A stretch of 64,000 nucleotides of DNA from Nitrosopumilus sp. GTDB lineage: Archaea > Thermoproteota > Nitrososphaeria > Nitrososphaerales > Nitrosopumilaceae. Location: the NCBI GenBank assembly GCA_965207075.1, contig CBDBLO010000002.1:1248001-1312000 (forward strand), in the 5' to 3' direction. The notes under the pieces were generated by a model. That model worked only from the letters and a program-made list of their open reading frames with translations. It did no database searches and was not told the DNA's origin. The translations under genes and the position numbers were made by a program. How positions within the stretch are numbered: position 1 is the stretch's first letter; the number at the start of each line of letters is the position of its first letter. Below, piece after piece: positions 1 to 30,885 of this stretch.

Positions 1-63
1 ATTATCAAAGTACACCACACCCCAGAGCAGACACAAACCCCCCCACGGCCTCGGCGGTAGTCA

Positions 64-339
64 TCAGTCCCAACCTCCCCATTCCGCGCAGACTAATATG
101 GCGCACGCGCCGGCGCCGTGCAGCGCAGACACATATAGTATGAGTAGCACCAGTGCGAGCGCGCCCAGGACAGCAAACGCAATAATGCTTTCAATGCGGC
201 GGCGCTCAAAGGCAAAGGCATAGCCGCGGTTTAAAAACCTCAGACATGATAGCGCGATCAGCAGCCCCGCGCCCGCGGCCAGGATTATGATCATGGCGAA
301 CTGCCACACAGTGTATGGCAGCAGCGCCTCGGCAGTCAT
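64..339 (-). CDS. Small membrane protein (2 TM), member of paralogous array
   Basis: Hydrophobic ORF, ATGA overlap with upstream gene; N-terminus LLPYTVWQFA shared with 991-1122. Confidence 0.7.
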   Translation of the reverse strand: MTAEALLPYTVWQFAMIIILAAGAGLLIALSCLRFLNRGYAFAFERRRIESIIAFAVLGALALVLLILYVSALHGAGACAILVCAEWGGWD

Positions 340-695
340 ATGACAAACGCCTCCTCGAACAGTCCGACCACCGTGTCATATGTTGACCACTGAATGCCGA
401 ACGCGGCCAGTCCGATGATAACCGGCGCACTCACAATCGACATGCGGCTGCAGTCCCGGAGCGCCATGAAGGCGGCCAGTCTGAGCGCGCTCGCTACCAC
501 GAGGGTGTTCAAAAACAAGAAAAATACAAAGATGAATGCACCGACAACCGCTTCCGGGCCGAGCCGGTACACTTGGGGCAACGCCAGCATGAGTCCGGCG
601 ACAGTTATCAGTCCCAGTAAGATTCCAACACCAATCTGAAAGACCACATCATCCACGTCCTGCGCCCCGTTTGTCACGCCGTCCGTCTTGCTCAT
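336..695 (-). CDS. Small membrane protein (3 TM)
   Basis: Three hydrophobic stretches; start/stop overlaps with both neighbours. Confidence 0.7.
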   Translation of the reverse strand: MSKTDGVTNGAQDVDDVVFQIGVGILLGLITVAGLMLALPQVYRLGPEAVVGAFIFVFFLFLNTLVVASALRLAAFMALRDCSRMSIVSAPVIIGLAAFGIQWSTYDTVVGLFEEAFVI

Positions 696-994
696 CAGCC
701 CAGCAACCCCCTGAACACAACTTCCGCATCACGCCCAAACCACATGACGCACGTCATGACGGATGCAAACGCGAGTGCGGTGAACACTATCCACCAGTCG
801 TCATGACGTCCCACATACGCAAGGATGAGAAACCCGACACTAACCAACAGGAACAATACAAAGCCTGTCCCCGCCTGCAGCATGTCAAATAACAGGAATA
901 CGATAACAGACATCCCTGCGATGGATAGAAGCACGATAAAGAGACCCGCCACCGCCGCCGCCACCGGGGCTCCATCCATATTCTCCTGTATCAA
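695..994 (-). CDS. Small membrane protein (3 TM)
   Basis: Hydrophobic ORF; TTGA overlap with 991-1122. Confidence 0.7.
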   Translation of the reverse strand: MIQENMDGAPVAAAVAGLFIVLLSIAGMSVIVFLLFDMLQAGTGFVLFLLVSVGFLILAYVGRHDDWWIVFTALAFASVMTCVMWFGRDAEVVFRGLLG

Positions 995-1122
995 CCGTTC
1001 AGCACCCCCTCAAACTTCGCCGCCACGGCATCGTACGCGAACCAGTGCGCTGCACCGGCGCATGCGCCGCCGACGATTGTGGCGAACTCCCAGACCGTAT
1101 AGGGCAGCAGCGGTTCTGTCAT
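991..1122 (-). CDS. 43-aa membrane micro-protein (MTEPLLPYTVWEFATIVGGACAGAAHWFAYDAVAAKFEGVLNG), not in ORF track
   Basis: Translated by hand; fills the gap exactly with 4-nt overlaps on both sides; similar to neighbouring paralogs. Confidence 0.7.
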   Translation of the reverse strand: MTEPLLPYTVWEFATIVGGACAGAAHWFAYDAVAAKFEGVLNG

Positions 1123-1439
1123 TCATTCCCCACCATATCCACCGGTTGCGGCAGCAACCTGTCCAGTTTTTCATTGAGCGCCCGCAGCTCGATGGCTATC
1201 TCCCAGGTGGCCTGGCATGTATGCCGGTCCAGATCACCGCCCGGGCCGGTACATTTTGAAGAATAGATGTCACGTTGGTACGACGGCGGCGGTGCGTCAT
1301 CCACTTCGTTGTCAGCGCCGGCCGGCTCCTGTACAAGTAACGCATAGGAGACCACAACCGGGCAGCAAACCGCTAGTATGATAATGCCTACGATAAACCA
1401 CGGTATTCTCCTGCCGCGGCCGTCCCCGTCGCCGCTCAC
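1119..1439 (-). CDS. Single-TM hypothetical protein
   Basis: GTGA overlap with TFB-like stop; TM IPWFIVGIIILAVCC. Confidence 0.65.
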   Translation of the reverse strand: MSGDGDGRGRRIPWFIVGIIILAVCCPVVVSYALLVQEPAGADNEVDDAPPPSYQRDIYSSKCTGPGGDLDRHTCQATWEIAIELRALNEKLDRLLPQPVDMVGNE

Positions 1440-2293
1440 CTCGACGACACCCCCGCATGCCCGCACACCTTCCGCCGGGCCATCCGCACCGCCATGCGGG
1501 CCGCCCGCCGGGGGTTCTTCTCACGCTCGGCCAGTATGGGTAGCAGCCTCTTGGCCGCGCCCGCTATCCTGCTGATTATCTCGGCCTCGTACTCGTTGGC
1601 CAGCGACTGCAGTTCGCACCCCATGGCAAACCTTATGGTGTCCTCGCCCCCGCCCTCGACCAGGTCAAGGAAGCCGCACCGCCGGAGCACCATCTCCCTG
1701 CCCCTGCCGTCGGGCGTCGGGCACATGCGCCTGCTGGCGTCCATGACGACGCGCAGGTAGGGATGGGCGTTCCTCACCCCCAGTTCCATGCGGATGCACT
1801 CCAACAGCTTTGACTCTACCAGGGGGCATCCCATGTACCTGCAGACGGCGTAGAAGCTGAGCACGAGGCACTTTGACTTGGTCAGTCCGAGTTCGCGGTG
1901 CAGTTTTTGGTACCACGTCCAGACTGACTGTCCGACGTTGTTCCGCACCCCCATCTTCTGGGCAATGTTGCTCACGACTGCCAGGTCTGTCTGCCTGTGC
2001 ACGTACTTGTCCCCCCTGAGCGTACGGTCGGGCTTGCCCCCGACCTCCATCTCCAGGTACAGGTTTGGGCGGCTGCCGGGCTGCCCCCAGTGCTGCTGCG
2101 GCGCGTGCTGCACGCCTGCGCCCGCGGACGAACTGCCGTCCCCTCCGCGCGCGGCGGCTGCAGGCACGCCGCCGTCTATGCCCGCCCCATACTTTACCAC
2201 GCCGCACGCAGAGCACACGACCTCGCCCGCGTCGGCCTCGACCTCAGCGGACGCCGGATGCCCACACGTATCCAAGACAATAACCCCCTCCAT
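1436..2293 (-). CDS. tfb: Divergent transcription initiation factor IIB (TFB)-like protein
   Basis: N-terminal Zn ribbon CGH..GEVVCSACGVV; cyclin-fold-like segment IAQKMGV...WYQKL...SFYAVCRYMGCP resembling TFB core repeat 1. Confidence 0.7.
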   Translation of the reverse strand: MEGVIVLDTCGHPASAEVEADAGEVVCSACGVVKYGAGIDGGVPAAAARGGDGSSSAGAGVQHAPQQHWGQPGSRPNLYLEMEVGGKPDRTLRGDKYVHRQTDLAVVSNIAQKMGVRNNVGQSVWTWYQKLHRELGLTKSKCLVLSFYAVCRYMGCPLVESKLLECIRMELGVRNAHPYLRVVMDASRRMCPTPDGRGREMVLRRCGFLDLVEGGGEDTIRFAMGCELQSLANEYEAEIISRIAGAAKRLLPILAEREKNPRRAARMAVRMARRKVCGHAGVSSR

Positions 2294-2506
2294 GCTTTCA
2301 GCCTCTCATTCGCTACCAGCAGAAGGTGCGATCACGTTCTTGCATGAACAGTGTTGCAATCTCCATGAGCATTTTTGTTGTACATGTGATATATTATGTT
2401 ACCTACCTTTCGGGGCGTGTACGCTCGCTCGCGCGCCTCCGGCGCGCTCGCTCGCTCTATCCTCCCCTTGCCCCCCCCCGCCAACGACCGCGCCCCCGCG
2501 CGCGGT

Positions 2507-2514: not shown

Positions 2515-2533
2515 CGGCTTGACGTGTGCTGCC

Positions 2534-4302: not shown

Positions 4303-5106
4303 GTGGAACAAACGCCACAAGACGAGGAAGCCGACCACCACGCCGGGCGCCGCGTGCTGCAGTTCTTCGTATGCCTGTCCGTCGTGATGCTGGTCGCGGC
4401 CATTGCAATCTCGATACACGGAGACCTGCCCCCCGGCGCCTCGGCGCAGACGTCGTCCGTTGACAATATGCTTGATGCCCTGCGCGCGGCGGACGACGAC
4501 GCGCGCGACAATCCGCCCACCTCCTGGCGCCTCGGCGACGGCCTGCAGTCGGGTGACTCCTTTACCTACCAAATATGTCACGACGCGCGCGCGGTGCAGT
4601 TCGCCCACCCCCACGACTGCTATATCCTGCGCATGGATTTCATCTACCGCACCATCCACCACGCGTACGGCAACGCCGGCGTGTCGGGCGGCCTGATATG
4701 GATTGTGGACGCCTCCTTTCTGACCGCCGACGGCAAGGACCGCCGCACCATACTGTTTGTAGACGAGCACTTCGGCGTGCACGCCACCACCTCGCTCGAC
4801 CGGCAGCTCGCGGCCTCCGTGGAGCATACCATCATGCGCCTCGCCGAGTATGGGCGGCAGAACCTGTCCGTGGGCTCGCACTGGGGCGACGTCAAGACGC
4901 ACTTCACCACGGTGCCGCTGTCCGTCGTATCGTGGGACGGCGACCGCACGGCGACGCTGGGATACGACGTCGGCGAATACGAGTCGCGCACCCTCATAAC
5001 GACGGACGTGCCATTCCCGACGTACAGCCTGTGGTTTGAACCGAACGACGCCCTGCCGGGGGAGCCGCGCAAGCAGCACGCGTACACACTGCTCGGGAGG
5101 GAGTGA
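4303..5106 (+). CDS. Membrane-anchored/secreted hypothetical protein
   Basis: N-terminal TM; WRLGDGLQSGDSFTYQIC resembles a recalled thaumarchaeal exported family; TATA at ~4276. Confidence 0.75.
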   Translation: MEQTPQDEEADHHAGRRVLQFFVCLSVVMLVAAIAISIHGDLPPGASAQTSSVDNMLDALRAADDDARDNPPTSWRLGDGLQSGDSFTYQICHDARAVQFAHPHDCYILRMDFIYRTIHHAYGNAGVSGGLIWIVDASFLTADGKDRRTILFVDEHFGVHATTSLDRQLAASVEHTIMRLAEYGRQNLSVGSHWGDVKTHFTTVPLSVVSWDGDRTATLGYDVGEYESRTLITTDVPFPTYSLWFEPNDALPGEPRKQHAYTLLGRE

Positions 5107-5264
5107 CAGACGCCCCCCACAATGCAAGCCCGCATTACCCCAGCTAAAAGCCACGCGCGCGCACCGGCACCCGTCCCTTCGGCCGGTTTTTGCCGGAAAA
5201 ACCCCCCAGACCCAACACAATTAAGCCACACACGCGTGGAAGAAACAGGAGATGATCACACAGC

Positions 5265-6782
5265 ATGAACCCCATAGTAGTCATTGGACTGGTGTCCGTC
5301 GTGGTAGCCGGCATGTACAGCGTGTACGACGGATTGGAGAAGCAGGCCGAACTCGCCGCCCTGCACGCCGACATGCTGGCCCGGCAGCACGCCGAGCACT
5401 CCGTCTTCGTACATGGCGAGGTGCAGGACGACGGCACGAACATCATATTTGTGAACAACGGCCCGCAGCCAGCCGAGCTCGTGCAGGTTCGCGCGTATGA
5501 CTCCAGCGTCGAGCCAGCGCCGTTAGTCAACACGTGGCAGGTGTCGTACGAACTGCCGCCGCTCGGCAGGTTCAACCTCACGGACGCGTCCTCCCCGCTG
5601 CCGCCCCCACCGTCCGACCTCAGGGGCACGACGCTGAGGAACGCGCTGGACGCCGACACGTCATACCGCGGGGTGACGTCTGCCGGCGGCATATTCGAGA
5701 TCACGTATGACCCGTCGTCCGCCATTATCACCCCGGACGGCGCGTTCGGCCCCATGTCCGCCGTGGAGTTTGACAGGGGAAGCGGTTCAAGGTCCCACGC
5801 CGGCGGCGTCACCACGACGGCCTACTATTACTCCGATCCGTCCATAACCTGCAAGACGCGATACGCAGTCGCGGGTACGTCCTATACCAAGTACTATGAC
5901 TTCATAGCCGTGTACAACCAGCCGTACAGCGTTTCCACCACCGGCCCCGGCCCCACCTACACGCACCAGCCGGCCGGCAGCGCGTCGTGGGACTACTTTG
6001 TGTTTGACCGCACTGGCAGCGACATTTCCAGCATCCTGCACTGCAGCAACTACGGCACAGTTATCGACGGCATCCCCGGCCCCCAGCAGAATGAGTCACC
6101 CCAAAACTTCCCAACGTACATCACGCAGCATTCGACATATAGCAACGTGTTCTACCGCACCCTCTCCACTACGAGCACCACCGTCAACCTCAGCCTGCCG
6201 CTTGACGGCGAGTTCACGGCACCGGCCGACGGCAAGTTTCTCCTTCGCGTCGATGCGCCTGTCACCGCGACCACCTCCGCCTCGTACGACGGCTCGAACC
6301 AGCTGATGTTCGTAAACAATGTGTGCCTGACCCAGTCCAATTACCCCCCTGTGGATTACGAGACCGTCACGGAGAACACCGTCAGCCAGTGGGAGTCCTC
6401 CCTCGGCACCCCCGCCCTCACGTCCTCGCTCAACGTCAGGATAAACGGGGTGTCCGCCGGAAGCCTCGGCCTGTCAGATGTGGTCCTGACGGACAGCAGC
6501 GGCGTGGGTGGCAGGAACTATGTCTTTGACAGGTGGGCCGACGGCGGCGGATGGGACTGCACCCTGACGCTGACCGCCGACATCGACGGCTCCTGGCTGC
6601 ACGGCGGCACCCTCACCGGCTGGACGACCGTCGATGCGCTGGACGGCGACCTCATTGAGATTGACGGCACGGTCAGGCTGCGGTACACGCCGCCGTCCGT
6701 TTCCTCCGCCACCATCGACACCACCGGCGCCAGGCTTGAACTGGACGACCCGCTGTTCACCGTGGGCCTGCTGCACAACTAG
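5265..6782 (+). CDS. Pilin/ArlF-G-like N-terminus fused to a Thr/Ser/Tyr-rich beta-rich domain (putative adhesin/minor pilin)
   Basis: MNPIVVIGLVSVVVAG TM, helix, then IIFVNNG, the same layout as 20618-21025 and 21490-21912. Confidence 0.65.
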   Translation: MNPIVVIGLVSVVVAGMYSVYDGLEKQAELAALHADMLARQHAEHSVFVHGEVQDDGTNIIFVNNGPQPAELVQVRAYDSSVEPAPLVNTWQVSYELPPLGRFNLTDASSPLPPPPSDLRGTTLRNALDADTSYRGVTSAGGIFEITYDPSSAIITPDGAFGPMSAVEFDRGSGSRSHAGGVTTTAYYYSDPSITCKTRYAVAGTSYTKYYDFIAVYNQPYSVSTTGPGPTYTHQPAGSASWDYFVFDRTGSDISSILHCSNYGTVIDGIPGPQQNESPQNFPTYITQHSTYSNVFYRTLSTTSTTVNLSLPLDGEFTAPADGKFLLRVDAPVTATTSASYDGSNQLMFVNNVCLTQSNYPPVDYETVTENTVSQWESSLGTPALTSSLNVRINGVSAGSLGLSDVVLTDSSGVGGRNYVFDRWADGGGWDCTLTLTADIDGSWLHGGTLTGWTTVDALDGDLIEIDGTVRLRYTPPSVSSATIDTTGARLELDDPLFTVGLLHN

Positions 6783-7475: not shown

Positions 7476-8111
7476 ATGATCATCGCCATCGAAGGAATAG
7501 ATAAGGCGGGCAAGCGGACGCAGGCCGTCCTGCTGCGGGACGCGCTCCAGAAGAGGCTCGTGGAATCCGCGCTCATCGACTTTCCGACAAAGGGCACGCT
7601 GACCGGCGAAGCCGTCGCCGCATACTTCAGAAACACCGCGCGCTCCGACCTCTACCCGTCGCACCACCGGCACGTCCTTCCGTGTCTGGCGGCAGCCGAC
7701 ATGTGGGCTGCCTCCGGCAGGGTCGAGTCGGCCCTCCGCATGCGCGACGTACTGGTGTTGAACCGGTCGCCGGCGTCCAACCTGGCGTACGGGCGGGCCG
7801 CTGAACTGAACCACGCATGGCTCCGCAGCCTGACGGCAGGCCACCCGGCCAACGGCACGCCGAGACTCACCGTCCTGTTGGACATGCCCGTCTCCGAATC
7901 CTTCAGGCGCGTCCCGGAAAACCGAGACGCCTTTGAGTCCGACCGTCATTTCCTGAACGACGTGCGCGCCACCTACCTGTCAGAGGCCCGCAGGCATAAA
8001 TGGACGGTCGTGCGCGCCAACCGCCCCGCCGCCGACGTACACCATACCATACTGCGCAGGGTGATGCCGCGCATACGCGAAGTGTTGCGACAGCGGGAGG
8101 CGGCGTTGTAG
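7476..8111 (+). CDS. tmk: Thymidylate (dTMP) kinase
   Basis: IAIEGIDKAGKRTQ P-loop, LVLNRSPASNLAYG, LTVLLD. Confidence 0.9.
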   Translation: MIIAIEGIDKAGKRTQAVLLRDALQKRLVESALIDFPTKGTLTGEAVAAYFRNTARSDLYPSHHRHVLPCLAAADMWAASGRVESALRMRDVLVLNRSPASNLAYGRAAELNHAWLRSLTAGHPANGTPRLTVLLDMPVSESFRRVPENRDAFESDRHFLNDVRATYLSEARRHKWTVVRANRPAADVHHTILRRVMPRIREVLRQREAAL

Positions 8112-8129: not shown

Positions 8130-8200
8130 TAGCGAGACACGGAGTCGAACCGCGGACCTCAGGTTATGAGCCTGGCATGTTACCGTTACACCACATCGCT
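8130..8200 (-). tRNA. tRNA-Met(CAT), initiator-like (A1:U72), intronless, no encoded CCA
   Basis: Reverse complement AGCGATG-TG-GTGTAACGGTAACAT-G-CCAGG CTCATAA CCTGA-GGTC-CGCGG TTCGACT CCGTG-TCTCGCT-A folds into a cloverleaf. Confidence 0.85.
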
Positions 8201-8648: not shown

Positions 8649-8855
8649 TCAGGCCCACTTGTCAGGGCTCTTTTTCCTGACGTGCTTTCCGTCGATCGAT
8701 ACGGTGTCCCCATGCTCAAAGACCGTGTGCCACCTGCCGTTGCTGGGAAATATCCTGTCCATCTCGACTATCCTCTTCCTGGTGGGCGGCCTGTTCGTCA
8801 GGGCCCCCCACTTCATGTTGTCGATTTTTGGCATTATGTCGTTTATGTCCCTCAT
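8649..8855 (-). CDS. Small hypothetical protein (thaumarchaeal-type)
   Basis: 68-aa ORF MRDINDIMPKIDNMKWGAL..., TATA upstream; directly downstream of nrdJ. Confidence 0.7.
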   Translation of the reverse strand: MRDINDIMPKIDNMKWGALTNRPPTRKRIVEMDRIFPSNGRWHTVFEHGDTVSIDGKHVRKKSPDKWA

Positions 8856-20296: not shown

Positions 20297-20298
20297 AC

Positions 20299-21484: not shown

Positions 21485-21489
21485 GGCGC

Positions 21490-21912: not shown

Positions 21913-21916
21913 GCAG

Positions 21917-22375
21917 TCACCCTCCCGCCACCAGCACGCTCACCCTGTCGCACGTTATGGTGGAGCCGTCGGACAGTGTGGCGACGGCCTCGGCGTACCC
22001 CGAGCTGATGGCCGCCGACGAGTTGGCCGACGTTACGCCCACGTGCTCGGACTTTCCGCCCGGCTCGATGGCTGTCGCGCCGCCGAACGTGTACGTGTCA
22101 CCGACGCGGGCCGTGAACCCGGTCAGCGTCTCGCCGCCCGTGTTCGATATGGTCACCTCGACGAAGCTCTTTCCGCCCCCTATGTCGTCCCTGCCGTCCA
22201 CGTGCAGCGTGCAGTGGGCGCTCTCCCAGGCGTCGCCCCCGCCGTACCCGCCGAACCACGCGGCCAGCGCGCCGACTCCCACGACGGAGATAGCGATCAG
22301 TATGAGCGCCTCGATCATGCCGGACACGGCGGGCCTGCCGGCGGGCGCACCGTCCTTGTTTCGGCCGGACGTCAT
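21917..22375 (-). CDS. Archaeal type IV pilin (class III signal peptide)
   Basis: GRPA-VSGMIEALILIAISVVGVGAL then ISNTG; ATGA overlap with VirB4 stop. Confidence 0.75.
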   Translation of the reverse strand: MTSGRNKDGAPAGRPAVSGMIEALILIAISVVGVGALAAWFGGYGGGDAWESAHCTLHVDGRDDIGGGKSFVEVTISNTGGETLTGFTARVGDTYTFGGATAIEPGGKSEHVGVTSANSSAAISSGYAEAVATLSDGSTITCDRVSVLVAGG

Positions 22376-24486: not shown

Positions 24487-24552
24487 AAAAGCAGGATTCG
24501 CGGCGGTTTTTAAGGCGGCCGCGGCTTAAATCAGACCCGCCGCCCGCATGTC

Positions 24553-24990
24553 ATGAGCCCGTGGTATCACCCCCGATTCTACCACGTGTGGCTGCCGGGC
24601 GACAGGGCCAAGGAAATCCTCGACGAGCTGGCCGACAGGAGGGCCGACAAGGGGCGCCGCAAGGTCGTATACCTGGAGACTCGGGGCAGCAAGCTGGCCG
24701 CCGTGATCGAGTGCGACATGGGTTATACGCCGCGCGCCTGGCGGCGGCTGCGCAAAGGCTTCTGCCTGGGGTACCTGTGCCGCCCCGCCTCCGAGCGCCG
24801 CGACGTCATGCGGTACGCCTGCCTGCTTGCAGAGGAGGGGCGCATGCCGTGGGAGGTCGCCGGTCCCGCCCGGCTGATGCCCGAACTGAGGCGGGAGCGC
24901 GCCGCGGTAATGCACGAGCGCGCGGAGCACCTGCGCACCGCGCGGGACGACGGATGGGACATAGACGTGCCGGAGGCCGTTCTGCCATGA
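24553..24990 (+). CDS. Hypothetical protein
   Basis: 145-aa ORF after TTAAAT box; ATGA overlap with next gene. Confidence 0.65.
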   Translation: MSPWYHPRFYHVWLPGDRAKEILDELADRRADKGRRKVVYLETRGSKLAAVIECDMGYTPRAWRRLRKGFCLGYLCRPASERRDVMRYACLLAEEGRMPWEVAGPARLMPELRRERAAVMHERAEHLRTARDDGWDIDVPEAVLP

Positions 24991-25379
24991 CGCCCTCGTG
25001 CGAAGAGTACGCCCCCCGGTGGGCCGGACTGCTGCAGTCCGCAGTCAACATCCGCGACGATCTGGGCGTGATGCCGACCGTCCGCCACCTGTGGCTCGCA
25101 GGACTGGCCTCGGACTGGCTGACGTCGCCGGTAACGGAGATACTGGGCCGCCAGCTGTGGCCCGCCCGCGTGCGCGGCAGGGACGTCCCGGCATACCTGT
25201 CGTTTGACTGGTGGTCCATGGGGAAGAGGTTCGCCGACACCGTGCGGGAGAAGCGGTACATCGGCGCGGCCGGGGTGCTCGACAGGTTTGCCGAAGGGCT
25301 GAACGACGGCGTGGTGGCGGCGGAGCGCGGAGAGATCGTGAAGGCCTTGGCAGACGGCGGCAGGACGGCCGTCAGTTAG
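24987..25379 (+). CDS. Hypothetical protein
   Basis: ATGA-coupled ORF MTPSCEEYAP... Confidence 0.65.
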   Translation: MTPSCEEYAPRWAGLLQSAVNIRDDLGVMPTVRHLWLAGLASDWLTSPVTEILGRQLWPARVRGRDVPAYLSFDWWSMGKRFADTVREKRYIGAAGVLDRFAEGLNDGVVAAERGEIVKALADGGRTAVS

Positions 25380-25414
25380 TACCGGCGCCTGCCGGACTGC
25401 CCGGGCGGCTTGCT

Positions 25415-25506
25415 GGTAGGTAGATTAATCGGTAATGTAGACTAATAGGTAGACTGCCGCAAAGCCGGCAATAGGTAAAGTCAGCAGATAGGTAAATTGA
25501 TAGGTT
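25415..25506. repeat. TAGGTA motif array between convergent genes
   Basis: TAGGTA at 25417, 25446, 25472, 25489 and TAGGTT at 25501. Confidence 0.7.
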
Positions 25507-25858
25507 AGGCGCCGTCCTCGCCGACATACCATCCGGCGAGCGGCTGCCGCATGGCGTGCTCCCAGTCCGCAAGCGGCACGACCCAGCCCGGCACGGTGCT
25601 CCGGCCGTCATCCAGCCGTTCGTCGTACACGTCGGCAGCACGAGCCCCCGGCGACTTTCTGCAGAGTCCCGTGATCGTCTTGTTGACCGCGTCGCGCACG
25701 TCCGCCGGCAGCCCCGCCCGCATGTATGACGAATATGTCCGCGGGACCTCAACGTACGTGGTCCCGCGCAGAGTGGCGCAGCGGAAGTTCGGAGCCACGT
25801 CGGAGAGGCGCATCTGGCGGCGGCCCGGTTTGTATTGCGGCGTCGGTTCCTTTGGCAT
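25505..25858 (-). CDS. Hypothetical protein
   Basis: 117-aa ORF with TTATTA box upstream. Confidence 0.6.
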   Translation of the reverse strand: MPKEPTPQYKPGRRQMRLSDVAPNFRCATLRGTTYVEVPRTYSSYMRAGLPADVRDAVNKTITGLCRKSPGARAADVYDERLDDGRSTVPGWVVPLADWEHAMRQPLAGWYVGEDGA

Positions 25859-25986
25859 GCCCAACCGGCGCGTCAGTCTAATAAGTACGGATCCCGTTTG
25901 GCCGTGGCCGGGAAACCTGCCGGCCGGCCGTCAGGCCCTTGTGTCATGCGCGCGCCTGTCGGCCACCTTGTGCGTCGGCGCCCGCG

Positions 25987-26139
25987 TTATTTTTTGCCTC
26001 CGAAAAGGTGCGCGCGCAGTATGTAGTTCGCCTCGCCCGAGTTCGACCTGCCATGTTCATCTGCCCGCCTGTCGAGCTCCTCGAAGACGTCATCTTCCAG
26101 CGAGAAACTGTGGACATTCTTGGTCTTGCCCTTTGCCAT
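25987..26139 (-). CDS. Ribbon-helix-helix (Arc/CopG-like) regulator, 50 aa, not in ORF track
   Basis: MAKGKTKNVHSFSLEDDVFEELDRRADEHGRSNSGEANYILRAHLFGGKK; AT-rich promoter 26160-26185. Confidence 0.8.
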   Translation of the reverse strand: MAKGKTKNVHSFSLEDDVFEELDRRADEHGRSNSGEANYILRAHLFGGKK

Positions 26140-26237
26140 GCACCACGTACGGACTGGTACTATTTATTTCTAATAATTCCTAATAGCTATCCCGTTCCTG
26201 CCGCGCGGCGGACTGGCCGGAGTTAAAAGATTCCCGC

Positions 26238-27536
26238 ATGGTTTACAGCATGACCGCGCTGCAGACCATATACACGGGCGATGTCATGGAACAGATCGCC
26301 CGCATCCCCGACTGTTCCGTGGACGTGGTCTTCACGTCGCCTCCGTACTTTGCGCTGCGCGACTACGACACGAAGGAGCAATGGGGGCTTGAACCGACCA
26401 TCCGCGAGTACCTGGACAAGCTGATGTCCCTGATGCGCGAGTGCCGCCGCGTGCTCAAGCCGGCGGGTAACATCTGGGTCAACCTGGGGGACACGTACGC
26501 GACGAGCGCCAAGTACGGGGTGCGGCGCAAGTCCCTCATGGGCATACCGGAGCGGTTTTTTGTCCGCGCGATAGACGACGGTTTTGCCTGCCGGAACAAG
26601 GACGTCTGGCAGAAGGCCAACCCCACCCCGTCGTCGGCCTGGGACCGCCTCACCAACACCTACGAGCCGGTGTTCTTCTTCTCCATATCGGACGCGTATT
26701 TCTTCGACCTGACGCCGGTCCGCGTCGAGGCCAAGACCGAGGCCCGCCCGTTCAACATCCGGGTGAGGGAGGCGCGAAAGCCGGGGGCGAGGCAGGCCAA
26801 ACTGATCCCGGAGCTGTCCCCGGAGGAGGACGCGCAGTACGACCGGCAGGGCGTGCGCAGGAGCGGAAGGCGCGCAAACAACCCCGCCCTCAACAACCGC
26901 AACTTCAAGGAGATCAAGGAGAAGTACGGCTACCTGCCCGGGTCCAACACCGCCAGGCTGCACCGCGCCAGGCCGGGCAACCCCAACCACGTGTGCAAGA
27001 GTTCCGGCTGTCTGCGCAACACCGGCAGCGTCAGAAAGCACGATGGCGTGCTGGGCGGGTACCTCGCCGACCCCATCCCCATGGCCGGCGGGCGCCCCCG
27101 CGGAAAGAATCCCGGCGACATCGTGTCGCTGCCGCACCAGCCCCTCAAGTACGATCACTTTGCAGCGTTCCCCGTGGGGCTCCCGCTCCACTTCCTGCCG
27201 GCCGCGTGCCCGCGCTGGGTCTGCAGGGAGTGCGGGCGGCCGAGGATGCCGCGCGACGGGCTGGACACGCATTCCGGGGGGCGCACCGTGTACAGGTGCA
27301 CCGTGTACACGCCGCTGTGCAAGTGCGGCGCCGGCTGGGAGCCCGGCATCGTACTGGACCCGTTTGCCGGCGCGGGCACCACCATGGTGGCGGCCAAGCG
27401 GCTGGGCTTCCGCTACTGCGGCATCGAGATCAACCCAAAGTACGTCCGCACAATCAGGCGCCGGCTGGCCGAGACCGAGGAGCCGCCGCCCATACCGCCG
27501 CCGGCGCCGTCGCGCGACGCCGAAGGGGAGCGGTAG
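26238..27536 (+). CDS. Orphan beta-class amino-DNA methyltransferase (N4-C likely, N6-A possible)
   Basis: Motif IV TSPPY at N-terminus, HFAAFP, motif I VLDPFAGAGTT at C-terminus. Confidence 0.92.
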   Translation: MVYSMTALQTIYTGDVMEQIARIPDCSVDVVFTSPPYFALRDYDTKEQWGLEPTIREYLDKLMSLMRECRRVLKPAGNIWVNLGDTYATSAKYGVRRKSLMGIPERFFVRAIDDGFACRNKDVWQKANPTPSSAWDRLTNTYEPVFFFSISDAYFFDLTPVRVEAKTEARPFNIRVREARKPGARQAKLIPELSPEEDAQYDRQGVRRSGRRANNPALNNRNFKEIKEKYGYLPGSNTARLHRARPGNPNHVCKSSGCLRNTGSVRKHDGVLGGYLADPIPMAGGRPRGKNPGDIVSLPHQPLKYDHFAAFPVGLPLHFLPAACPRWVCRECGRPRMPRDGLDTHSGGRTVYRCTVYTPLCKCGAGWEPGIVLDPFAGAGTTMVAAKRLGFRYCGIEINPKYVRTIRRRLAETEEPPPIPPPAPSRDAEGER

Positions 27537-27644
27537 ACGACAGGTTTCTGCCGCAATGCCGCCCGCCTTTAAAATGTCACGATGGTGTGCCGGCATGACG
27601 CGTTCTCGTGCCGCCGCCCCGGGCTGCCGAATGGAGATGAGCAG

Positions 27645-27983
27645 ATGAGCGCCATCTGCGGTCCGGCCTGCCAGTCCTGCCAGTTCTACTCGGCGGAGAC
27701 CCGGTACGCCGGCAAGCTGCTGTGCAAGGTATGCGCGGGAGCCCAGCGGTCGGCCGCCGCGCAGATGGGGCGCGCCAAGCGGACGCTTCCCGCCAACCCC
27801 TGCACGTGCAAACGCTCGTGGGAGTCCAGGCCGGACAGGCCGAAGACCGCGGTGAAGTGCCGCATGTGCGGCAGGTGGCATCCGCGCATCTACGTGTTTA
27901 TCACCGGCATATGCCGCACGTGCTGGCGCGCGGTAGAACGCGAACTCGGCAAGAGGCGGGGTAAAACCCGCAGGAGGACGTGA
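27645..27983 (+). CDS. Cys-rich zinc-binding protein
   Basis: Several CxxC pairs; ATGA-type start. Confidence 0.6.
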   Translation: MSAICGPACQSCQFYSAETRYAGKLLCKVCAGAQRSAAAQMGRAKRTLPANPCTCKRSWESRPDRPKTAVKCRMCGRWHPRIYVFITGICRTCWRAVERELGKRRGKTRRRT

Positions 27984-27984
27984 C

Positions 27985-28131
27985 ATGCTGAGGTGCTCCA
28001 AGTGCCACCACGAGTGGGACGACCATTACGTGAGCGACTACGGGACGGTGCTGTGCAACGCCGCGTCCGACAACGGAGTGACCGGGTGCCAGTGCGAGAC
28101 GCAGCTGGAGAACGAGGAGGCCGGCGACTGA
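27985..28131 (+). CDS. CxxCxH-x4-H...CxC micro-protein (48 aa)
   Basis: Hand translation MLRCSKCHHEWDDHY...GCQC; GGAGG upstream. Confidence 0.65.
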   Translation: MLRCSKCHHEWDDHYVSDYGTVLCNAASDNGVTGCQCETQLENEEAGD

Positions 28132-28238
28132 TGTCAACCAGGACAACAGGATGCGACGTGTGCGGCGCCACGTACGTTACGGACGACCTGACTCAGCTGC
28201 TGTGTCCCAAGTGCAGGAAGGAGACCGCCGAAGAATGA
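28131..28238 (+). CDS. CxxC zinc-finger micro-protein (35 aa)
   Basis: MSTRTTGCDVCG...CPKCRK; TGATG and ATGA overlaps. Confidence 0.6.
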   Translation: MSTRTTGCDVCGATYVTDDLTQLLCPKCRKETAEE

Positions 28239-28657
28239 GCCGCTCGTACAAGGCGGCGCGCAAGGCCCGCCGCAAGAACACCAAGGACACCAAGGACACC
28301 AAGTTCCGCGCGTCGTCCGCGAACACACACGTGTTCGGCGTCCGCACGCTAAAGGACGGCGTGGAGGTCTTCCTGTCCCGGTACATGAAGTACTATACGG
28401 AGATACGCAAGGAGGGCGTCAACAAGGAGTTCGCCCACCAGCTCGCAATGCTGGCGATTTCCATCACCAAGGCGGTGGAGGGCGTCCACGACCGGTACCC
28501 CGTGCAGGGCAACGCCCAGAACATGGTCAACATGTGCACCGAGATGTGGTTCGCCGTCAATGATCCCGAATATCAGGAGGCGGTGCAAAGCAACACTGTC
28601 GACGAGCTGCTCCGAAGGCGGGCGGAAGAGGAGGAGGAGATGGTGGTGGAGGAATGA
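28235..28657 (+). CDS. Hypothetical protein
   Basis: ATGA-coupled 140-aa ORF. Confidence 0.7.
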   Translation: MSRSYKAARKARRKNTKDTKDTKFRASSANTHVFGVRTLKDGVEVFLSRYMKYYTEIRKEGVNKEFAHQLAMLAISITKAVEGVHDRYPVQGNAQNMVNMCTEMWFAVNDPEYQEAVQSNTVDELLRRRAEEEEEMVVEE

Positions 28658-29022
28658 AGCCCTGTATACTGTGCGGACTGCCGACGGGCCGCGAGTGGAC
28701 TCCACCGCACGCGCCGGGACACCGCGTCGCGCTCTGCATCGCCTGCCACAAGCAAATCTCGGCGGCCGCCAACACCTGCGGTGTCGTCCTTCCGGACAAC
28801 TACGACGGACCCATCGGCATCGACGACCGTAACAAGTGCGTCATGTGCAACAAGGAGGCGGAGGGGCTGATATACCGGTGCAAGTGCTCCGAACACTGCT
28901 GCATTCGCCTCTGCATGAACTGCAGAAACAACCGGATGCACATCCACAACAAGATCGGGCACTTCATCAAACACTACGATGTCGAGGGGGACGGTCGCGG
29001 ACTGCCGGAGAGGGTGGAGTAA
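28654..29022 (+). CDS. Cys-rich zinc-binding protein
   Basis: CILC, CIAC, CVMC, CKCSEHCC, CMNC. Confidence 0.7.
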   Translation: MKPCILCGLPTGREWTPPHAPGHRVALCIACHKQISAAANTCGVVLPDNYDGPIGIDDRNKCVMCNKEAEGLIYRCKCSEHCCIRLCMNCRNNRMHIHNKIGHFIKHYDVEGDGRGLPERVE

Positions 29023-29178
29023 ATGTCAAAGCACGCCGACATCCCGGCCAACAGAATCAAGTGCGCGGTCTGCCAGCACGAGAGCCGGAGCCACCACCCT
29101 GGAGGCTGCTGGGAACAGGGCTGCAACTGCCGCGGGTTCAAATCGCCCCTACGGACGCTGGAGGAGGCGACGGAATGA
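29023..29178 (+). CDS. CxxCxH-x4-H...CxC micro-protein (51 aa)
   Basis: Hand translation ...CAVCQHESRSHHPGGCWEQGCNC. Confidence 0.65.
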   Translation: MSKHADIPANRIKCAVCQHESRSHHPGGCWEQGCNCRGFKSPLRTLEEATE

Positions 29179-29480
29179 CGCGCGGCCTCATCGTCCTCCA
29201 TCCTTACGCCACACAAATCATCACCGGCGACAAGACGGAGGAGTACCGTGACCGCCCGCCGCCCCCAGGGGTCATAGGCTCGACCATCTACCTGCTGTCA
29301 GGCGGATACGCCCTCGGCAGGATCAAGATCACGTGGGCGGAGCCCGGCATCTGGCACGTCCGCGTCGTGGAAAGGTTCGATACCCCGCGCAAGTACGAGC
29401 ACCCGAATGGCGCCCAGGTGTGGGTGCGGGACGTGCGGTTCGACCCGCAGCCCACGCTCGACGGGAGGAATGCATCGTGA
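29175..29480 (+). CDS. ASCH-domain protein
   Basis: GLIVLHPYATQIITGDKTEEYR matches the ASCH signature (L...PyA..I..GxKxxExR). Confidence 0.85.
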   Translation: MTRGLIVLHPYATQIITGDKTEEYRDRPPPPGVIGSTIYLLSGGYALGRIKITWAEPGIWHVRVVERFDTPRKYEHPNGAQVWVRDVRFDPQPTLDGRNAS

Positions 29481-29596
29481 ACTGCAACAACTGCGATGCC
29501 GAGGGCACTGCTGAGAATGTCTGCCCCATGTGCAACGAGTCGTTCTGCGACGACTGCGAGCATTCCCACGGGTGCGACTTGGAGGACTACTGGTGA
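29477..29596 (+). CDS. Cys-rich micro-protein
   Basis: CNNC..CPMC..CDDC; GTGA overlap. Confidence 0.6.
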   Translation: MNCNNCDAEGTAENVCPMCNESFCDDCEHSHGCDLEDYW

Positions 29597-29748
29597 TGGC
29601 GCCCGGCAAGAGGCGCGGCCTCGTCAGCTGCGATGCCTGCGGCAGGCGCATCAAACCTAACCCCGAAAGGACCAGCGGACCGGGCTCAGCCTACCCGGAC
29701 AAATACTATTGCTCTCCGTGCTGGAAGTACTGGGAGGAGGGTGACTGA
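29596..29748 (+). CDS. CxxC micro-protein
   Basis: CDACG..YCSPCW; TGATG overlaps. Confidence 0.6.
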   Translation: MAPGKRRGLVSCDACGRRIKPNPERTSGPGSAYPDKYYCSPCWKYWEEGD

Positions 29749-29891
29749 TGCCCGCCCCGGATACCATCCCCTGCCTCTCCTGCGGCCACTCCCAGGACGG
29801 CCACGAGAAACCACGGAGCTGCACGAGCCTGACTCCATGTAAGACCGCCGGCTGCTTCTGCACGCGGTACAAAGGGGGACGGGCTGGCTGA
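29748..29891 (+). CDS. CxxCxH-x4-H...CxC micro-protein (47 aa)
   Basis: Hand translation MPAPDTIPCLSCGHSQDGH...GCFC. Confidence 0.6.
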   Translation: MPAPDTIPCLSCGHSQDGHEKPRSCTSLTPCKTAGCFCTRYKGGRAG

Positions 29892-30442
29892 CCGACAGCA
29901 ACAGGACCCGCCGGAAGCGCGGGTACGAATACGAGAAGAGTCTGGCGCTCCGGCTCAACAAGGTACCCGGGTGCCGCGCCTACAGGTTGGGCGGGACGCA
30001 GGTGGAACTGCCCGACGTGCTGTGCGTCAACAATATCACGGGTGAGATGGCCGCCATCGAGTGCAAGACCGGCGGCAACGGCCGGCTGTACGTACCGCGC
30101 GATCAAATAGAGAGATGCCGCAGCTGGACCGACGCTCTGCGGGCGTACGGCCGCCGGCACGTCATAGTCGCGTTCAGGTTCCACTCAAAGCGCGGGCGCG
30201 GGAAGACCAGGCGCGATGTAAGGGAGTACCTCTTCCAGTTGCACGACGAAGTCACGCGCGACGTGCGCTGCTCCTATGACGGCACGTTATACATGCGCGA
30301 CTGCGACGGAAATGAGGGCGACTGCGGCTGGACTGTGATATGCTCCCCCGCGGGGGCCGTACAACTGGCGCTGGCCGACAGGGTGCCCGCCCCTGGCGCG
30401 GGGGGGCTGGCCATGTGCGAATCCGCCCCGCCTGTACGCTAG
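29888..30442 (+). CDS. hjc: Archaeal Holliday junction resolvase (Hjc, PD-(D/E)xK)
   Basis: RRKRGYEYE..LPDVL..AIECK; reading frame extends upstream of the ORF-track start to a CTG overlapping the previous stop. Confidence 0.8.
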   Translation: MTDSNRTRRKRGYEYEKSLALRLNKVPGCRAYRLGGTQVELPDVLCVNNITGEMAAIECKTGGNGRLYVPRDQIERCRSWTDALRAYGRRHVIVAFRFHSKRGRGKTRRDVREYLFQLHDEVTRDVRCSYDGTLYMRDCDGNEGDCGWTVICSPAGAVQLALADRVPAPGAGGLAMCESAPPVR

Positions 30443-30452
30443 CCCGCCGCAG

Positions 30453-30569
30453 TGACATCTGAGGGCGGGCGTCAGAAAATTCCTGCTAATTGATTAAGCG
30501 GAACAAATTCTTTCCTGCTAATCGATTAGCGGTAATTTTCTCCCGTCCGCGCTGTTCCTGCAGATGTCA
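30453..30569. repeat. Nested repeats at the element's right flank
   Basis: TGACATCTG (30453) / CAGATGTCA (30561) inverted; TTCCTGCTAAT[T/C]GATTA(A)GCGG direct at 30480 and 30512; palindrome GCTAATCGATTAGC 30517-30530. Confidence 0.75.
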
Positions 30570-30885
30570 GGCGTCATTCCAGACTGCGGTGTCTCATCGA
30601 AACCTTAATTATCGGCGTACTCCTACGTTTGGTCAAATCTAAAAAGCATGGAATAAACCAACTAATCCTATTGGATTCGCTGGGGGACTGGCCGGCGCCC
30701 CGTGGCCTCCCTGCCTTCTTGACGCGCCTCTGATCCCGTGACGCGGCCACGCGTGAGTGCTGCCCTCCTGCAGCCGCTGGCGTCGACGGCGGACACTCCT
30801 GAGGTTTTCCGATGGCGCGGTTTTTGTTGCCTGCCGTCCTGCCGCGGGCAAACATCTTATTTGCGCGCCACGACGGCCTGGTTGA

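Follow-up and report, generated by a model that had tools for sequence, protein, structure and literature searches.

The closest described systems are the thaumarchaeal integrative-conjugative elements (ICEs), whose gene set is given in the main text of Krupovic et al. 2019 (PMC6563490) as VirB4 and VirD4, a TadC-like protein, a FlaI/PilT-type ATPase, a prepilin peptidase, and pilins. These ICEs also carry an integrase and, next to a ParB-like gene, a TFIIB homologue, reach 140 kb, and include auxiliary metabolic genes (PMC6563490). According to the same text, integration is intergenic in 15 of 68 iMGE, and NitEve-E7 is nested in NitEve-E6, a precedent for a composite element. The att cores of 29–69 bp that it quotes follow a range from She et al., 2002 and not its own thaumarchaeal set. 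The window analysed here, 64,000 nucleotides of contig C2 from a high-GC member of the Nitrosopumilaceae of sponge-associated type, likely holds the right end of one such ICE of 150.9 kb. Positions with the prefix C2 refer to the contig and all others to the window.

The DNA at 1–30677 is integrated accessory DNA, confirming what an earlier note had read from the window's letters; relatives lack the region and an empty-site contig exists. The note placed it at 1–30600, and its right limit is close to the one found here (30677), whereas the left limit lies 120,219 bases upstream of the window edge. The integrated element comprises 150,897 bp (C2:1127781–1278677, or window −120219 to 30677), of which the window shows the right-hand 30.7 kb, about one fifth. 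It is flanked by a DRG GTPase gene on one side and a HAD hydrolase and arginyl-tRNA synthetase (ArgRS) pair on the other (30886–33653, + strand), the latter identified by Pfam and by synteny with DRG in relatives. In the comparison with close genomes that the note had proposed, the region was absent at this site from 17 of 18 same-genus genomes, where DRG and ArgRS lie 0.86–3.3 kb apart on a single contig versus 151.9 kb here. The order DRG, HAD, ArgRS was present in all eight relatives' loci fetched.

Extension to the left and a search for att repeats and an integrase, also suggested in the note, yielded 120 kb more of the element, 10-bp repeats, and an integrase-like gene. Inspection of the sequence revealed the direct repeat CTATTGGATT at both ends, the left copy at C2:1127771–1127780 and the right copy, a candidate att core also marked by the empty-site contig, at 30668–30677 (+ strand). 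That contig, from public run X1, fuses the 30 letters preceding the left repeat to window 30668 onward; it matches both flanks to the base and derives from a strain ~97% identical. A similar loose end, 20 letters long, is present in run X19. The element's integration is thus directly visible, while its enzyme is a candidate: a tyrosine-recombinase-like integrase at the left end (C2:1127833–1129134, + strand), 93 bp from the DRG start. Its match to Pfam Phage_integrase (E 1.2e-4) is below cut-off and its profile match is to archaeal XerA (4a8e; E 0.0075), with R, R, H, and Y invariant across four integrase paralogs. The paralogs adjoin tRNA-Lys and tRNA-Leu genes, and one heads a 26-kb insert, which a duplicate of that region lacks. 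Neither transfer of the element nor an excision circle or episomal copy of it was observed.

The genes listed in the earlier note were all recovered by Pfam and ARAGORN, namely an NrdJ-type ribonucleotide reductase (RNR), thymidylate kinase (Tmk), tRNA-Met, TFB-like protein, DNA methylase, Hjc, ASCH, VirB4-like protein, and pilins. The combination it reported, in which conjugation genes stand alongside genes for replication, nucleotides, and tRNAs, is likewise found in the island. The window part encodes a VirB4/HerA-like ATPase of 704 aa (22372–24486, − strand; Pfam AAA_10 E 2.3e-10, DUF87 E 5.9e-6) and a T2SSE/FlaI/PilT-type secretion ATPase (16268–17965, + strand; Pfam T2SSE E 1.5e-17). Four mutually paralogous pilin-like genes (135, 152, 136, and 152 aa; 20618–22375, − strand) all encode an N-terminal hydrophobic helix, and one of them (21917–22375) matches Pilin_N at E 0.001, below the Pfam cut-off. 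Further left are a VirD4/TraG-like coupling protein (C2:1147414–1151442, + strand; Pfam E 1.2e-9), a TadC/T2SSF-like protein (C2:1201593; Pfam), and a prepilin peptidase (C2:1244887; a weak Pfam match, below cut-off), along with a 6-TM protein (C2:1155013) and a 1141-aa anchored protein (C2:1203460). The non-pilin components occur once each in the island, spread over C2:1147–1272 kb.

This conjugation module is present three times in the genome, in the island (E1), in E2 at C2:710–761 kb, and in E3 at about C2:1717–1784 kb. E2 and E3, at about 50–66 kb compared with 150.9 kb for the island, are 75–92% identical to each other, and share with the island VirD4, VirB4, TadC-like, FlaI-like, peptidase, pilins, TFB-like, ParB-like, and two proteins of >1000 aa, at 32–73% identity. 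Both lack RNR, and no tRNA genes were called inside either copy. A 1252-aa protein with an N-terminal anchor (12451–16209, + strand) is conserved in the module, with paralogs at 38–39% identity in E2 and E3 and an 84% identical copy in L007; it returned no Pfam family and no PDB match. Also paralogous in E2 and E3 are two membrane-anchored proteins of 267 and 505 aa (4303–6782, + strand), each with one N-terminal hydrophobic segment and no Pfam family above cut-off, and a 3-TM protein (265 aa; TM scan) with a 97-aa module protein (19499–20592, + strand). The VirB4 family has a patchy distribution (24/151 genus genomes), and the E1 type is rarer (3/151 at at least 76% identity).

Between the 505-aa and 1252-aa genes, within the conserved module, lies a block of nucleotide and tRNA genes: a second thymidylate kinase (7476–8111, + strand; Pfam E 1.4e-24), a second tRNA-Met(CAT) (8130–8200, − strand; ARAGORN), and an ATP-cone RNR of NrdJ type (8912–11680, − strand; Pfam E 1e-143). 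That nrdJ and tmk might be the host's only copies, a caveat of the earlier note, is ruled out by host paralogs at C2:394226 (55–58% identical to the island RNR, 55% by tblastn) and C2:79344 (41% identity by tblastn). NCBI lists an RNR relative (53% identity) as adenosylcobalamin-dependent. Among the 120 best matches listed from a 5.8-billion-protein collection, only six were closer (67–88%), all on metagenomic contigs, and IMG/VR held no close relative. In a quick tree, none of the sampled thaumarchaeal cellular copies falls within the separate, long-branched clade of the island RNR. The tRNA-Met shares 41 identical positions with the host tRNA-Met of 75 nt, and has A as first base and T as last stem base, the initiator tRNA signature. 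With tRNA-His/Thr/Cys (C2:1186525–1186747, + strand) and tRNA-Arg (C2:1216192–1216268, − strand), both from a tRNA search, the island has five tRNAs, each duplicating a host anticodon at 55–75% identity to the host's. Three of the five fit TGC, CGC, and CAC, which rank among the four codons most over-used in the island and are much more frequent there than in the host. The separate RNR clade and the tRNA divergence argue that these are old lineage-specific genes rather than recent host-gene copies, so the earlier description of host-derived core genes holds only loosely.

Other cargo includes HMG-CoA reductase (C2:1212927), NAMPT (C2:1214731), and RNA ligase (C2:1216270). Genes for nucleic acid processing in the window part encode a membrane-anchored staphylococcal-nuclease-domain protein (18068–19363, − strand; Pfam SNase E 4e-6, N-terminal hydrophobic segment), an N6/N4 DNA methyltransferase (26238–27536, + strand; Pfam E 1.1e-34), an ASCH-domain protein (29175–29480, + strand; Pfam E 4e-5), and a second Hjc-like resolvase (30002–30442, + strand; Pfam Hjc E 2.5e-4), with a paralog at C2:1363069 (42% identity). 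Upstream are an RNaseH-like exonuclease (C2:1162239), type IIG RM (C2:1164599), PD-(D/E)XK (C2:1199246), ArdC-N (C2:1200634), Mrr (C2:1235205), and DnaJ (C2:1242616) proteins. About 15 zinc micro-proteins had been noted earlier; this was reproduced in part, with a strict CxxC...CxxC pattern in five small proteins of the window part and 48/135 in the whole island. Gene calls came from a simple in-house caller, and most of the 239 island genes lack annotation.

Replication and regulation genes include a PrimPol-D5 helicase (C2:1174951–1177263, − strand; PrimPol, D5_N, and DUF5906 in Pfam), an SF2 helicase (C2:1132619), and a 285-aa TFB/TFIIB-like protein (1436–2293, − strand). The latter matches Pfam Zn_Ribbon_TF at E 0.0035 (17.3 bits vs. 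a cut-off of 29), is conserved in both other module copies, and has paralogs of 42–44% identity at C2:752452, 1731926, and 2055275. A ParB-like candidate (C2:1246207–1247739, − strand) is a language-model lead, with a predicted structure at pLDDT 32 and no match in PDB searches. A 65-bp AT-rich repeat with two ~22-bp near-palindromes (30476–30540, + strand) recurs at −47529 and −95841 (blastn, 97% and 90% identity) and nowhere else in a genome-wide pattern search.

From these homologies, the left-end tyrosine recombinase would integrate and excise the element at CTATTGGATT between the DRG GTPase and HAD hydrolase genes. After excision the PrimPol-D5 helicase would replicate it, and the ParB-like protein, whose gene lies close to that for the TFB-like protein, may partition it, with the three 65-bp double palindromes as speculative candidate binding sites. 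A VirB4 and VirD4 machine could then move the element to another cell, joined with a type-IV-pilus-like apparatus comprising the TadC-like platform, FlaI-type ATPase, prepilin peptidase, four pilins, and two anchored proteins of >1100 aa. The large cargo of RNR, Tmk, NAMPT, HMG-CoA reductase, RNA ligase, methylases, restriction enzymes, nucleases, and five tRNAs may lower dependence on the recipient cell. As judged from sequence, the element can probably transfer itself between ammonia-oxidising archaea.

It is scarcely credible that the assembler joined foreign DNA to the chromosome. The assembly does hold strain variants (contig C1 is a 94–97% variant of C2:41–72 kb, and C2 begins with a repeat of its own end), short-read contigs stop at window 30668, and none of the contig pieces shown bridges the right end. 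However, the direct repeats at both ends, the integrase at one, and the base-exact empty-site contig argue against a chimera, as does the island's right part, found at 100% identity and flank-like depths in runs from two studies. Contig depths of the island are about those of the flank, though depths are not copy numbers. This similarity, the three module copies, and the module's recurrence in several sponge-type relatives would also suit a fixed DNA-transfer locus that has lost mobility. The crenarchaeal Ced system is described as such a domesticated chromosomal locus. This reading is nonetheless unlikely given the patchy VirB4 family, the island's absence from 17/18 relatives and the X1 strain, the integrase and repeats, and the start of E3, where a tRNA-Leu gene is succeeded by an integrase.

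A new virus-plasmid hybrid, large and self-replicating but neither ICE nor provirus, with its capsid lacking or unrecognised, is very unlikely. Its phage-like cargo of codon-matched tRNAs, RNR, Tmk, NAMPT, RNA ligase, HNH endonucleases, NinG, and DUF5131 speaks for it, and a divergent capsid could hide among the many unannotated genes. Yet, as the earlier note had it, no capsid, portal, or terminase appeared, either in Pfam scans of 229 of the 239 island gene calls plus the 190-aa call at C2:1185836 or, for any virion gene, in PHROGs scans of 120 island proteins. Six-frame searches of the whole genome gave 0 matches each to TerL_ATPase, Terminase_6N, and the HK97 capsid family. The full ICE gene set and the IMG/VR result also oppose a hybrid, and for this class of ICEs sizes up to 140 kb and auxiliary metabolic genes are already on record (PMC6563490). 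A composite island is a tentative possibility, in which the arrays of tRNA, NAMPT, RNA-ligase, and small genes at about −62000 to −12800 stem from a replicon other than that of the conjugation genes, nested or piggybacking in the ICE as cryptic element(s) or a virus-derived block. NitEve-E7 in NitEve-E6 (PMC6563490) is its precedent. GC steps within the island are compatible with it, only one 5-kb bin of C2:1130001–1185000 reaching the 63.5% listing threshold compared with most bins of C2:1185001–1279999, as are the three 65-bp repeats, which split the island into 24, 48, and 78 kb pieces. Extended arrays in which small unannotated genes share one strand, accompanied by HNH endonucleases, point the same way, and the E1-type module of RHO2_bin_25 lacks the RNR block, suggesting modular cargo. 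Conversely, only one integrase-like gene and no second set of conjugation genes were seen in the island, its tRNA-cluster zone is not repeated elsewhere within it, the RNR/tmk/tRNA-Met block is embedded in the conserved module, and the empty site lacks the entire 151 kb.

Jumbo phages and other large viruses carry tRNAs, RNR, Tmk, NAMPT, and RNA ligase. The element resembles these viruses in tRNAs matching its own codon use and in having nucleotide and NAD salvage genes of its own, but differs in its conjugation apparatus, with no capsid, portal, terminase, or tail gene found. Sulfolobales conjugative plasmids of the pNOB8 type are 25–45 kb and crenarchaeal. By description they share a VirB4-/VirD4-like ATPase pair, no typical relaxase, and tyrosine-recombinase integration; to our knowledge they have neither a pilus-type TadC/FlaI set nor comparable cargo. 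Plasmids of this type are among those cited in PMC6563490.

The thaumarchaeal ICEs described in the main text of PMC6563490 (e.g. NitEve-E6, NCAV2-E1/E2) share more: the VirB4/VirD4 pair, the pilus-type set (TadC-like protein, FlaI/PilT ATPase, prepilin peptidase, and pilins), a tyrosine integrase, replication proteins of MGE type, and a TFIIB homologue encoded close to a ParB-like gene. In both, a relaxase is not recognised, auxiliary metabolic cargo is present, and conjugation genes are not syntenic between elements; intergenic integration is known for the class. Unlike those ICEs, the element has conjugation genes scattered over 125 kb, no recognised VirB6 or VirB3 in the island, and a host of the high-GC sponge-associated type. 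Its 150.9 kb slightly exceeds the 140 kb of the largest reported, and its att core is only 10 bp compared with the 29–69 bp quoted. Its cargo differs as well, with five tRNAs, NrdJ and Tmk in second copy, NAMPT, HMG-CoA reductase, and RNA ligase; 'ribonucleotide reductase', 'thymidylate', and 'carry tRNA' are absent from that main text. The earlier note had proposed a new class of element, but with the 120 kb it had not seen the gene set matches the thaumarchaeal ICEs of Krupovic et al. 2019. This makes the element a large new representative of a known class, unusual for an ICE in its size, its own tRNAs, and its own nucleotide-synthesis genes.

The accessory DNA at the left of the window belongs to a much longer island. 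Raised GC and dense arrays of short same-strand genes extend far leftward, and the window edge was ruled out as the left end because high-GC small-gene DNA and conjugation genes run 120 kb beyond it. The element occupies positions 1127781-1278677 of the main contig (C2) and measures 150,897 bp; coordinates without a contig name are those of the window, negative to its left. Its genome, G000, is archaeal and comprises 2.23 Mb at 60% GC in two contigs. The closest named relatives of the window's proteins come from metagenome-assembled Nitrosopumilaceae and 'Thaumarchaeota archaeon' genomes, in keeping with a thaumarchaeal source, and parts of the stretch are found in runs labelled sponge, coral or marine metagenome. 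The GC content of the island is 63.3% versus 60.0% for the rest of the contig. Genes were called with a home-made simple codon-usage caller, giving 239 in the island with a median length of 115 aa (median from 240 calls), and were then scanned against Pfam and PHROGs; the batch scans return family counts without naming the matching protein.

The earlier note had called the region a large integrated element of accessory DNA and proposed comparing close genomes and looking for an integrase and att repeats; each of these checks bore it out. A DRG-type GTPase gene lies immediately left of a tyrosine-recombinase-like gene at the left end of the island (C2:1127833), and to the right of 30677 follow a HAD hydrolase and then arginyl-tRNA synthetase (ArgRS). 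DRG and ArgRS are 0.86-3.3 kb apart on one contig in 17 of 18 same-genus genomes and on separate contigs in the 18th; in G000 the distance is 151.9 kb. The order DRG(-), HAD(+), ArgRS(+) is kept in all eight relatives' loci that were fetched; DRG and HAD are separated by ~70-235 bp in four of them and by ~1.0-2.5 kb in the remaining four. The 10-bp direct repeat CTATTGGATT is present at both junctions, at C2:1127771-1127780 and 30668-30677.

Logan contigs of four public sequencing runs were aligned to 21001-41000. Run X1, a marine metagenome, yields contigs ~97% identical to the host flank, including one of 1112 letters whose alignment starts at 30668 and runs to the right. Just before this point, the 30 letters displayed are exactly those preceding the left repeat beside DRG. 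This contig is the unoccupied site of a close relative, joined at the 10-bp repeat; it is the join that counts, and mere missing X1 cover over the island was given no weight. Run X19 contains the island at 0.98 of words together with a 20-letter loose end at 30668 of the same sequence as the X1 join, and contigs of both X19 and X23 start exactly at 30668. We infer that occupied and empty forms coexist in these samples. X23, from a different study than X19-X22, carries the right part of the island with zero differences. Contig depth is unusable as copy number here, giving neither episomal copies nor the share of island-free cells. Flank synteny, the shared repeat and the X1 contig therefore define the bounds of the element, and the insertion, its ends and its empty site are directly observed.

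The four longer DRG-HAD gaps (loci L027-L030, from relatives G018, G006, G010 and G016) hold ~1.0-2.5 kb of unrelated DNA, with 30-31% GC in three of the four inserts. They show no similarity to any G000 protein and no copy of the island's core, and the gap may therefore be a recurrent insertion spot.

The integrase-like protein scores below the Pfam cut-off, its profile matches archaeal XerA at E 0.0075, and an R...R...H...Y pattern is kept across four paralogs. Its paralogs adjoin tRNA-Lys and tRNA-Leu genes. A 26.2-kb insert headed by one of them occurs in one copy of a duplicated assembly stretch and is missing from the other, which fits an active integrase family. In this stretch the contig start (C2:1-33000) repeats the contig end (C2:2120787-2179734) at 92-99% identity except for those 26.2 kb (~2129175-2155409). 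The insert follows tRNA-Lys(CTT), its first gene is an integrase 59% identical to that of the island, and the alignment blocks flanking it overlap by 21 bases at the tRNA 3' end. From sequence, the repeat looks like an untrimmed overlap of a circular chromosome, with the occupied and empty site of a small element apparently captured in one assembly.

A 359-aa ORF, an insertion sequence, has at least seven copies in C2 at 96-100% identity (e.g. C2:761047, 1314876 and 1336445); part of it, 43 aa long, falls within the host flank of the window at 38331-38528, where short-read contigs break. For most of its length, the second contig, C1 (45.9 kb), is a variant of C2:34-72 kb at 80-97% identity, with a second tmk and tRNA-Arg(TCG) as part of this stretch. 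It probably represents a variant strain and not a plasmid. At C2:712737-713009, ARAGORN made four overlapping tRNA-like calls with a 4-base anticodon and 60-base spacing, probably a tandem repeat and not tRNA genes. VirD4-like paralogs also occur at C2:1919690 and 1941413, not far from an integrase beside tRNA-Lys(TTT) at 1912214. G000 is heavily loaded with DNA resembling integrative-conjugative elements (ICEs).

The genes listed in the earlier note (TFB, tmk, tRNA-Met, RNR, VirB4, pilins, methylase, ASCH and Hjc) were all recovered near their implied places. Pfam assigns a thymidylate kinase (7476-8111) and an ATP-cone ribonucleotide reductase (RNR; 8912-11680, minus strand), with tRNA-Met at 8130-8200 (minus strand). 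Between tRNA-Met and RNR, a 68-aa ORF without a Pfam match (8649-8855, minus strand) is 81% identical to the host ORF at C2:372277, far closer than any other island-host pair. To the right are a DNA methylase (26238-27536), an ASCH protein (29175-29480) and an Hjc-like protein (30002-30442) whose match is weak, near or below cut-off. A membrane-anchored SNase (18068-19363) and a FlaI/PilT-type ATPase (16268-17965) had been missing from that list. The left part of the island encodes a PrimPol-D5-type primase-helicase (C2:1174951), an RNaseH-like exonuclease, a type IIG restriction-modification enzyme, ArdC-N and PD-(D/E)XK proteins, two Mrr nucleases, three nucleotidyltransferases, DnaJ, HMG-CoA reductase, NAMPT and RNA ligase. 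Matches at the family level, with the member not located, comprise HNH endonucleases, Fic/Doc, GNAT, phosphoribosyltransferase, NinG, DUF5131, ThiF, dihydroorotate-dehydrogenase-like, PfkB, NucS-like and PIN. Roughly 150 island proteins are unannotated. Two large proteins of 1252 and 1141 aa have no Pfam family and no PDB match.

Thaumarchaeal ICEs, as described in passages of Krupovic et al. 2019 (PMC6563490), are defined by features including VirB6, VirB3 and TadC homologues. The same passages describe a TFIIB homologue, usually directly upstream of a ParB-like gene, varied replication genes of mobile-element type and many auxiliary metabolic genes. By their account no relaxase is present, synteny is low, and 15 of 68 integration sites are intergenic. 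Against this description, the island encodes a VirB4/HerA-like ATPase of the VirB4/TrbE type (22372-24486, minus strand; AAA_10 E 2.3e-10, 40.5 bits against a cut-off of 27.5; DUF87 E 5.9e-6). A 1342-aa VirD4/TraG-like coupling protein is found at C2:1147414-1151442 (TrwB_AAD_bind E 1.2e-9, 38 bits against a cut-off of 20.5, with TraG-D_C and T4SS-DNA_transf). A TadC/T2SSF-like membrane protein (C2:1201593; T2SSF E 3.1e-13) accompanies the FlaI/PilT-type ATPase (T2SSE E 1.5e-17). The integrase-like gene, the site-specific integration with direct repeats and the empty site in relatives also correspond to this class.

The remaining parts of the machinery are less distinct. Four small pilin-like genes (20618-22375, minus strand) encode proteins each with an N-terminal hydrophobic helix; one of them matches Pilin_N weakly (E 0.001, 20.3 bits against a cut-off of 25.2). 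A prepilin peptidase also scores below its cut-off (Peptidase_A24 E 4e-4, 21.2 bits, below 26.5). VirB6 and VirB3 have no Pfam match in the island; candidates are a 579-aa protein with six hydrophobic segments (C2:1155013) and a 265-aa protein with three transmembrane segments. A TFB-like zinc-ribbon protein (1436-2293, minus strand; Zn_Ribbon_TF E 0.0035, below cut-off) has as its conserved neighbour a 510-aa ParB-like candidate, with five small ORFs between them in the island; in E2, another copy of the conjugation module, the two are adjacent. The 510-aa protein has no Pfam family, PDB searches (phmmer and profile) were blank, and an AlphaFold2 model on a 4-sequence alignment reached a pLDDT of 32.5. 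Its 43%-identical homologue from a relative (L011) has 21 of 30 named Atlas matches in ParB_N clusters (score 0.93, 127 shared features), a lead towards a ParB-like protein. Save for recognisable VirB6 and VirB3, and with the ParB-like assignment as a lead only and the TFB, pilin and prepilin-peptidase matches below cut-off, the island fits the ICE traits in the passages of PMC6563490.

Other classes of integrated element agree poorly with these data. A provirus would carry an HK97 tailed or double-jelly-roll capsid and a packaging ATPase or terminase. Pfam and PHROGs sequence-family scans of the island proteins returned no capsid, portal or terminase, and whole-genome searches for TerL_ATPase, Terminase_6N and Phage_capsid gave no match each, in line with the earlier note, which had seen no capsid. 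A plus-strand block at -60567 to -55204 was considered as a structural module and rejected, with PHROGs giving an HNH endonuclease and one chance-level match, and Pfam blank for the three larger proteins. Casposons are marked by a Cas1-type casposase, a polymerase of family B and inverted repeats at their termini; the families listed in the island Pfam scans include neither Cas1 nor PolB, and the island ends in a direct repeat. Ced-type domesticated DNA-transfer systems are chromosomal genes conserved throughout a lineage, off mobile elements. Here, the VirB4 family was found in 24 of the 151 genus genomes; the site lacks the island in 17 of 18 relatives and in run X1.

A further question is whether the island is one element or several. 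Two further conjugation-module copies, E2 (C2:710-761 kb) and E3 (C2:1717-1784 kb), lie in opposite orientation; their proteins share 75-92% identity between the two copies and 32-73% with those of the island. E3 begins at tRNA-Leu(CAA) (1717730-1717826), followed by an integrase at 1717876. The midpoint between E2 and E3 falls within the island, which was judged coincidence. A nested or composite origin would fit the uneven GC within the island and for its three copies of a 65-bp repeat. Against it, each E2 gene type, pilins excepted, has exactly one island counterpart, scattered over C2:1146-1272 kb, and the RNR/tmk/tRNA-Met block is embedded in the conserved module, flanked by the 505-aa and 1252-aa genes. 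On these grounds the island is better read as one ICE swollen by cargo than as two in tandem; a nested or composite origin is considered unlikely. An E1-type module, that is, of the island's own type, is found on one contig each of RHO2_bin_25 and 277c_18 at 62-91% protein identity, and VirB4 of this type (at least 76% identity) occurs in 3 of the 151 genomes. RHO2_bin_25 and 277c_18 have only host-type RNR, which marks the RNR block as variable cargo.

The 65-bp repeat is AT-rich with two near-palindromes, and its copies at 30476, -47529 and -95841 are the only ones in the genome. It was rejected as the outer att site because the leftmost copy is 24 kb inside the element, right of VirD4, and the empty-site contig sets the right end at 30668-30677, which is 128 bases beyond the right copy. 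Speculatively, the repeats could be protein-binding sites for partition, origin or regulation.

Besides tRNA-Met, the island carries a His-Thr-Cys tRNA cluster (C2:1186525-1186747) and tRNA-Arg(GCG) (C2:1216192-1216268). The cluster was dismissed as a nested integration target, with blastn finding no repeat of the tRNA zone elsewhere in the island. All five tRNAs duplicate a host anticodon and are only 55-75% identical to the host genes. Relative to the rest of the chromosome, the most over-used codons per 1000 are TGC (+15.1), CGC (+12.1), CCG (+6.6) and CAC (+5.6), and three of these four are read by the island tRNAs Cys-GCA, Arg-GCG and His-GTG. CxxC...CxxC is present in 48 of 135 small island proteins, and the Cys excess is consistent with these many zinc-ribbon micro-proteins. 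The island tRNAs would serve translation of its own genes.

With the host copy, and with copies in 56 of the 60 genus genomes searched, the island RNR shares 55-59% identity. Among the best 120 matches listed from a 5.8-billion-protein collection, six are closer (67-88%), on contigs of up to 158 kb, and the rest reach at most 55%. In a quick tree with SH-aLRT support, the island RNR groups with these six in a clade that has full support and a long stem and falls outside every thaumarchaeal cellular copy sampled. The six are absent from JGI metagenome contigs (best match 54%) and from IMG/VR (one 37% fragment). The short HMG-CoA reductase likewise has a separate set of relatives (52-71% identity), among them one named from a Cenarchaeum MAG; typical Nitrosopumilus enzymes reach 48-49% and the host's own copy 46%. 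At 93,158 bases, the contig of one of the six RNRs (P0003, 80%) is exactly as long as the longest contig in the cluster of the island's HMG-CoA reductase (P0121), an equality that hints at one related contig bearing both genes. At the sequence level, the core-like genes of the island are redundant with those of the host and divergent from them. Elsewhere in the genus, RNR frames of ~1240-1270 aa in two relatives (G002:C1:1106429-1109827 and G033:C1:2043463-2046906) match in two pieces with a gap between, which would fit an intein or other insertion.

In the proposed life cycle, the integrase would excise the island, the PrimPol helicase would replicate it and the VirB4/VirD4/pilus machine would transfer it. 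A bolder reading, which we consider quite unlikely, builds on the match between tRNAs and codons and on RNR and HMG-CoA reductase lineages private to the island: a distinct, long-lived 'mega-ICE' lineage of sponge-associated ammonia-oxidising archaea, with virus-like autonomy without a capsid and existence as a large episome. The codon-matched tRNAs would then serve a Cys/Arg/His-rich zinc-ribbon micro-protein proteome. Autonomy would extend to NrdJ, Tmk and HMG-CoA reductase lineages that diverged long ago and to genes for NAD salvage and RNA repair, and the three 65-bp double palindromes would act as centromere or origin sites in large-episome replication.

Element-matched tRNAs are a trait mostly discussed for phages. 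Together with the element-specific RNR lineage, they suggest that large archaeal conjugative elements, too, can in evolution become partly independent of the host for translation and nucleotide supply. The natural empty site opens excision and transfer to direct testing. Counting the island, both additional ICE copies and other inserts linked to an integrase, a large part of this 2.2-Mb symbiont-type genome is mobile DNA, which bears on gene exchange among such symbionts inside their host. The element is also a possible starting point for genetic tools in ammonia-oxidising archaea, following a general suggestion for ICEs by Krupovic et al. (PMC6563490).

The earlier note had proposed a new class of element, a proposal that does not stand, as the gene set is that of the known thaumarchaeal ICE class. 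A literature search found no paper on a giant ICE in sponge Thaumarchaeota or on ICE-borne RNR or tRNAs in Nitrosopumilaceae, with the proviso that ICEs in PMC6563490 may carry either. Under the mega-ICE reading, the island would be the conjugative counterpart of jumbo phages. Judged against the passages of PMC6563490, where thaumarchaeal ICEs have a median size of 64 kb and a maximum of 140 kb, the 150,897-bp island is a very large member of the class. It extends the class to 151 kb in size and, among hosts, to sponge-type Nitrosopumilaceae, with ends resolved to the base.
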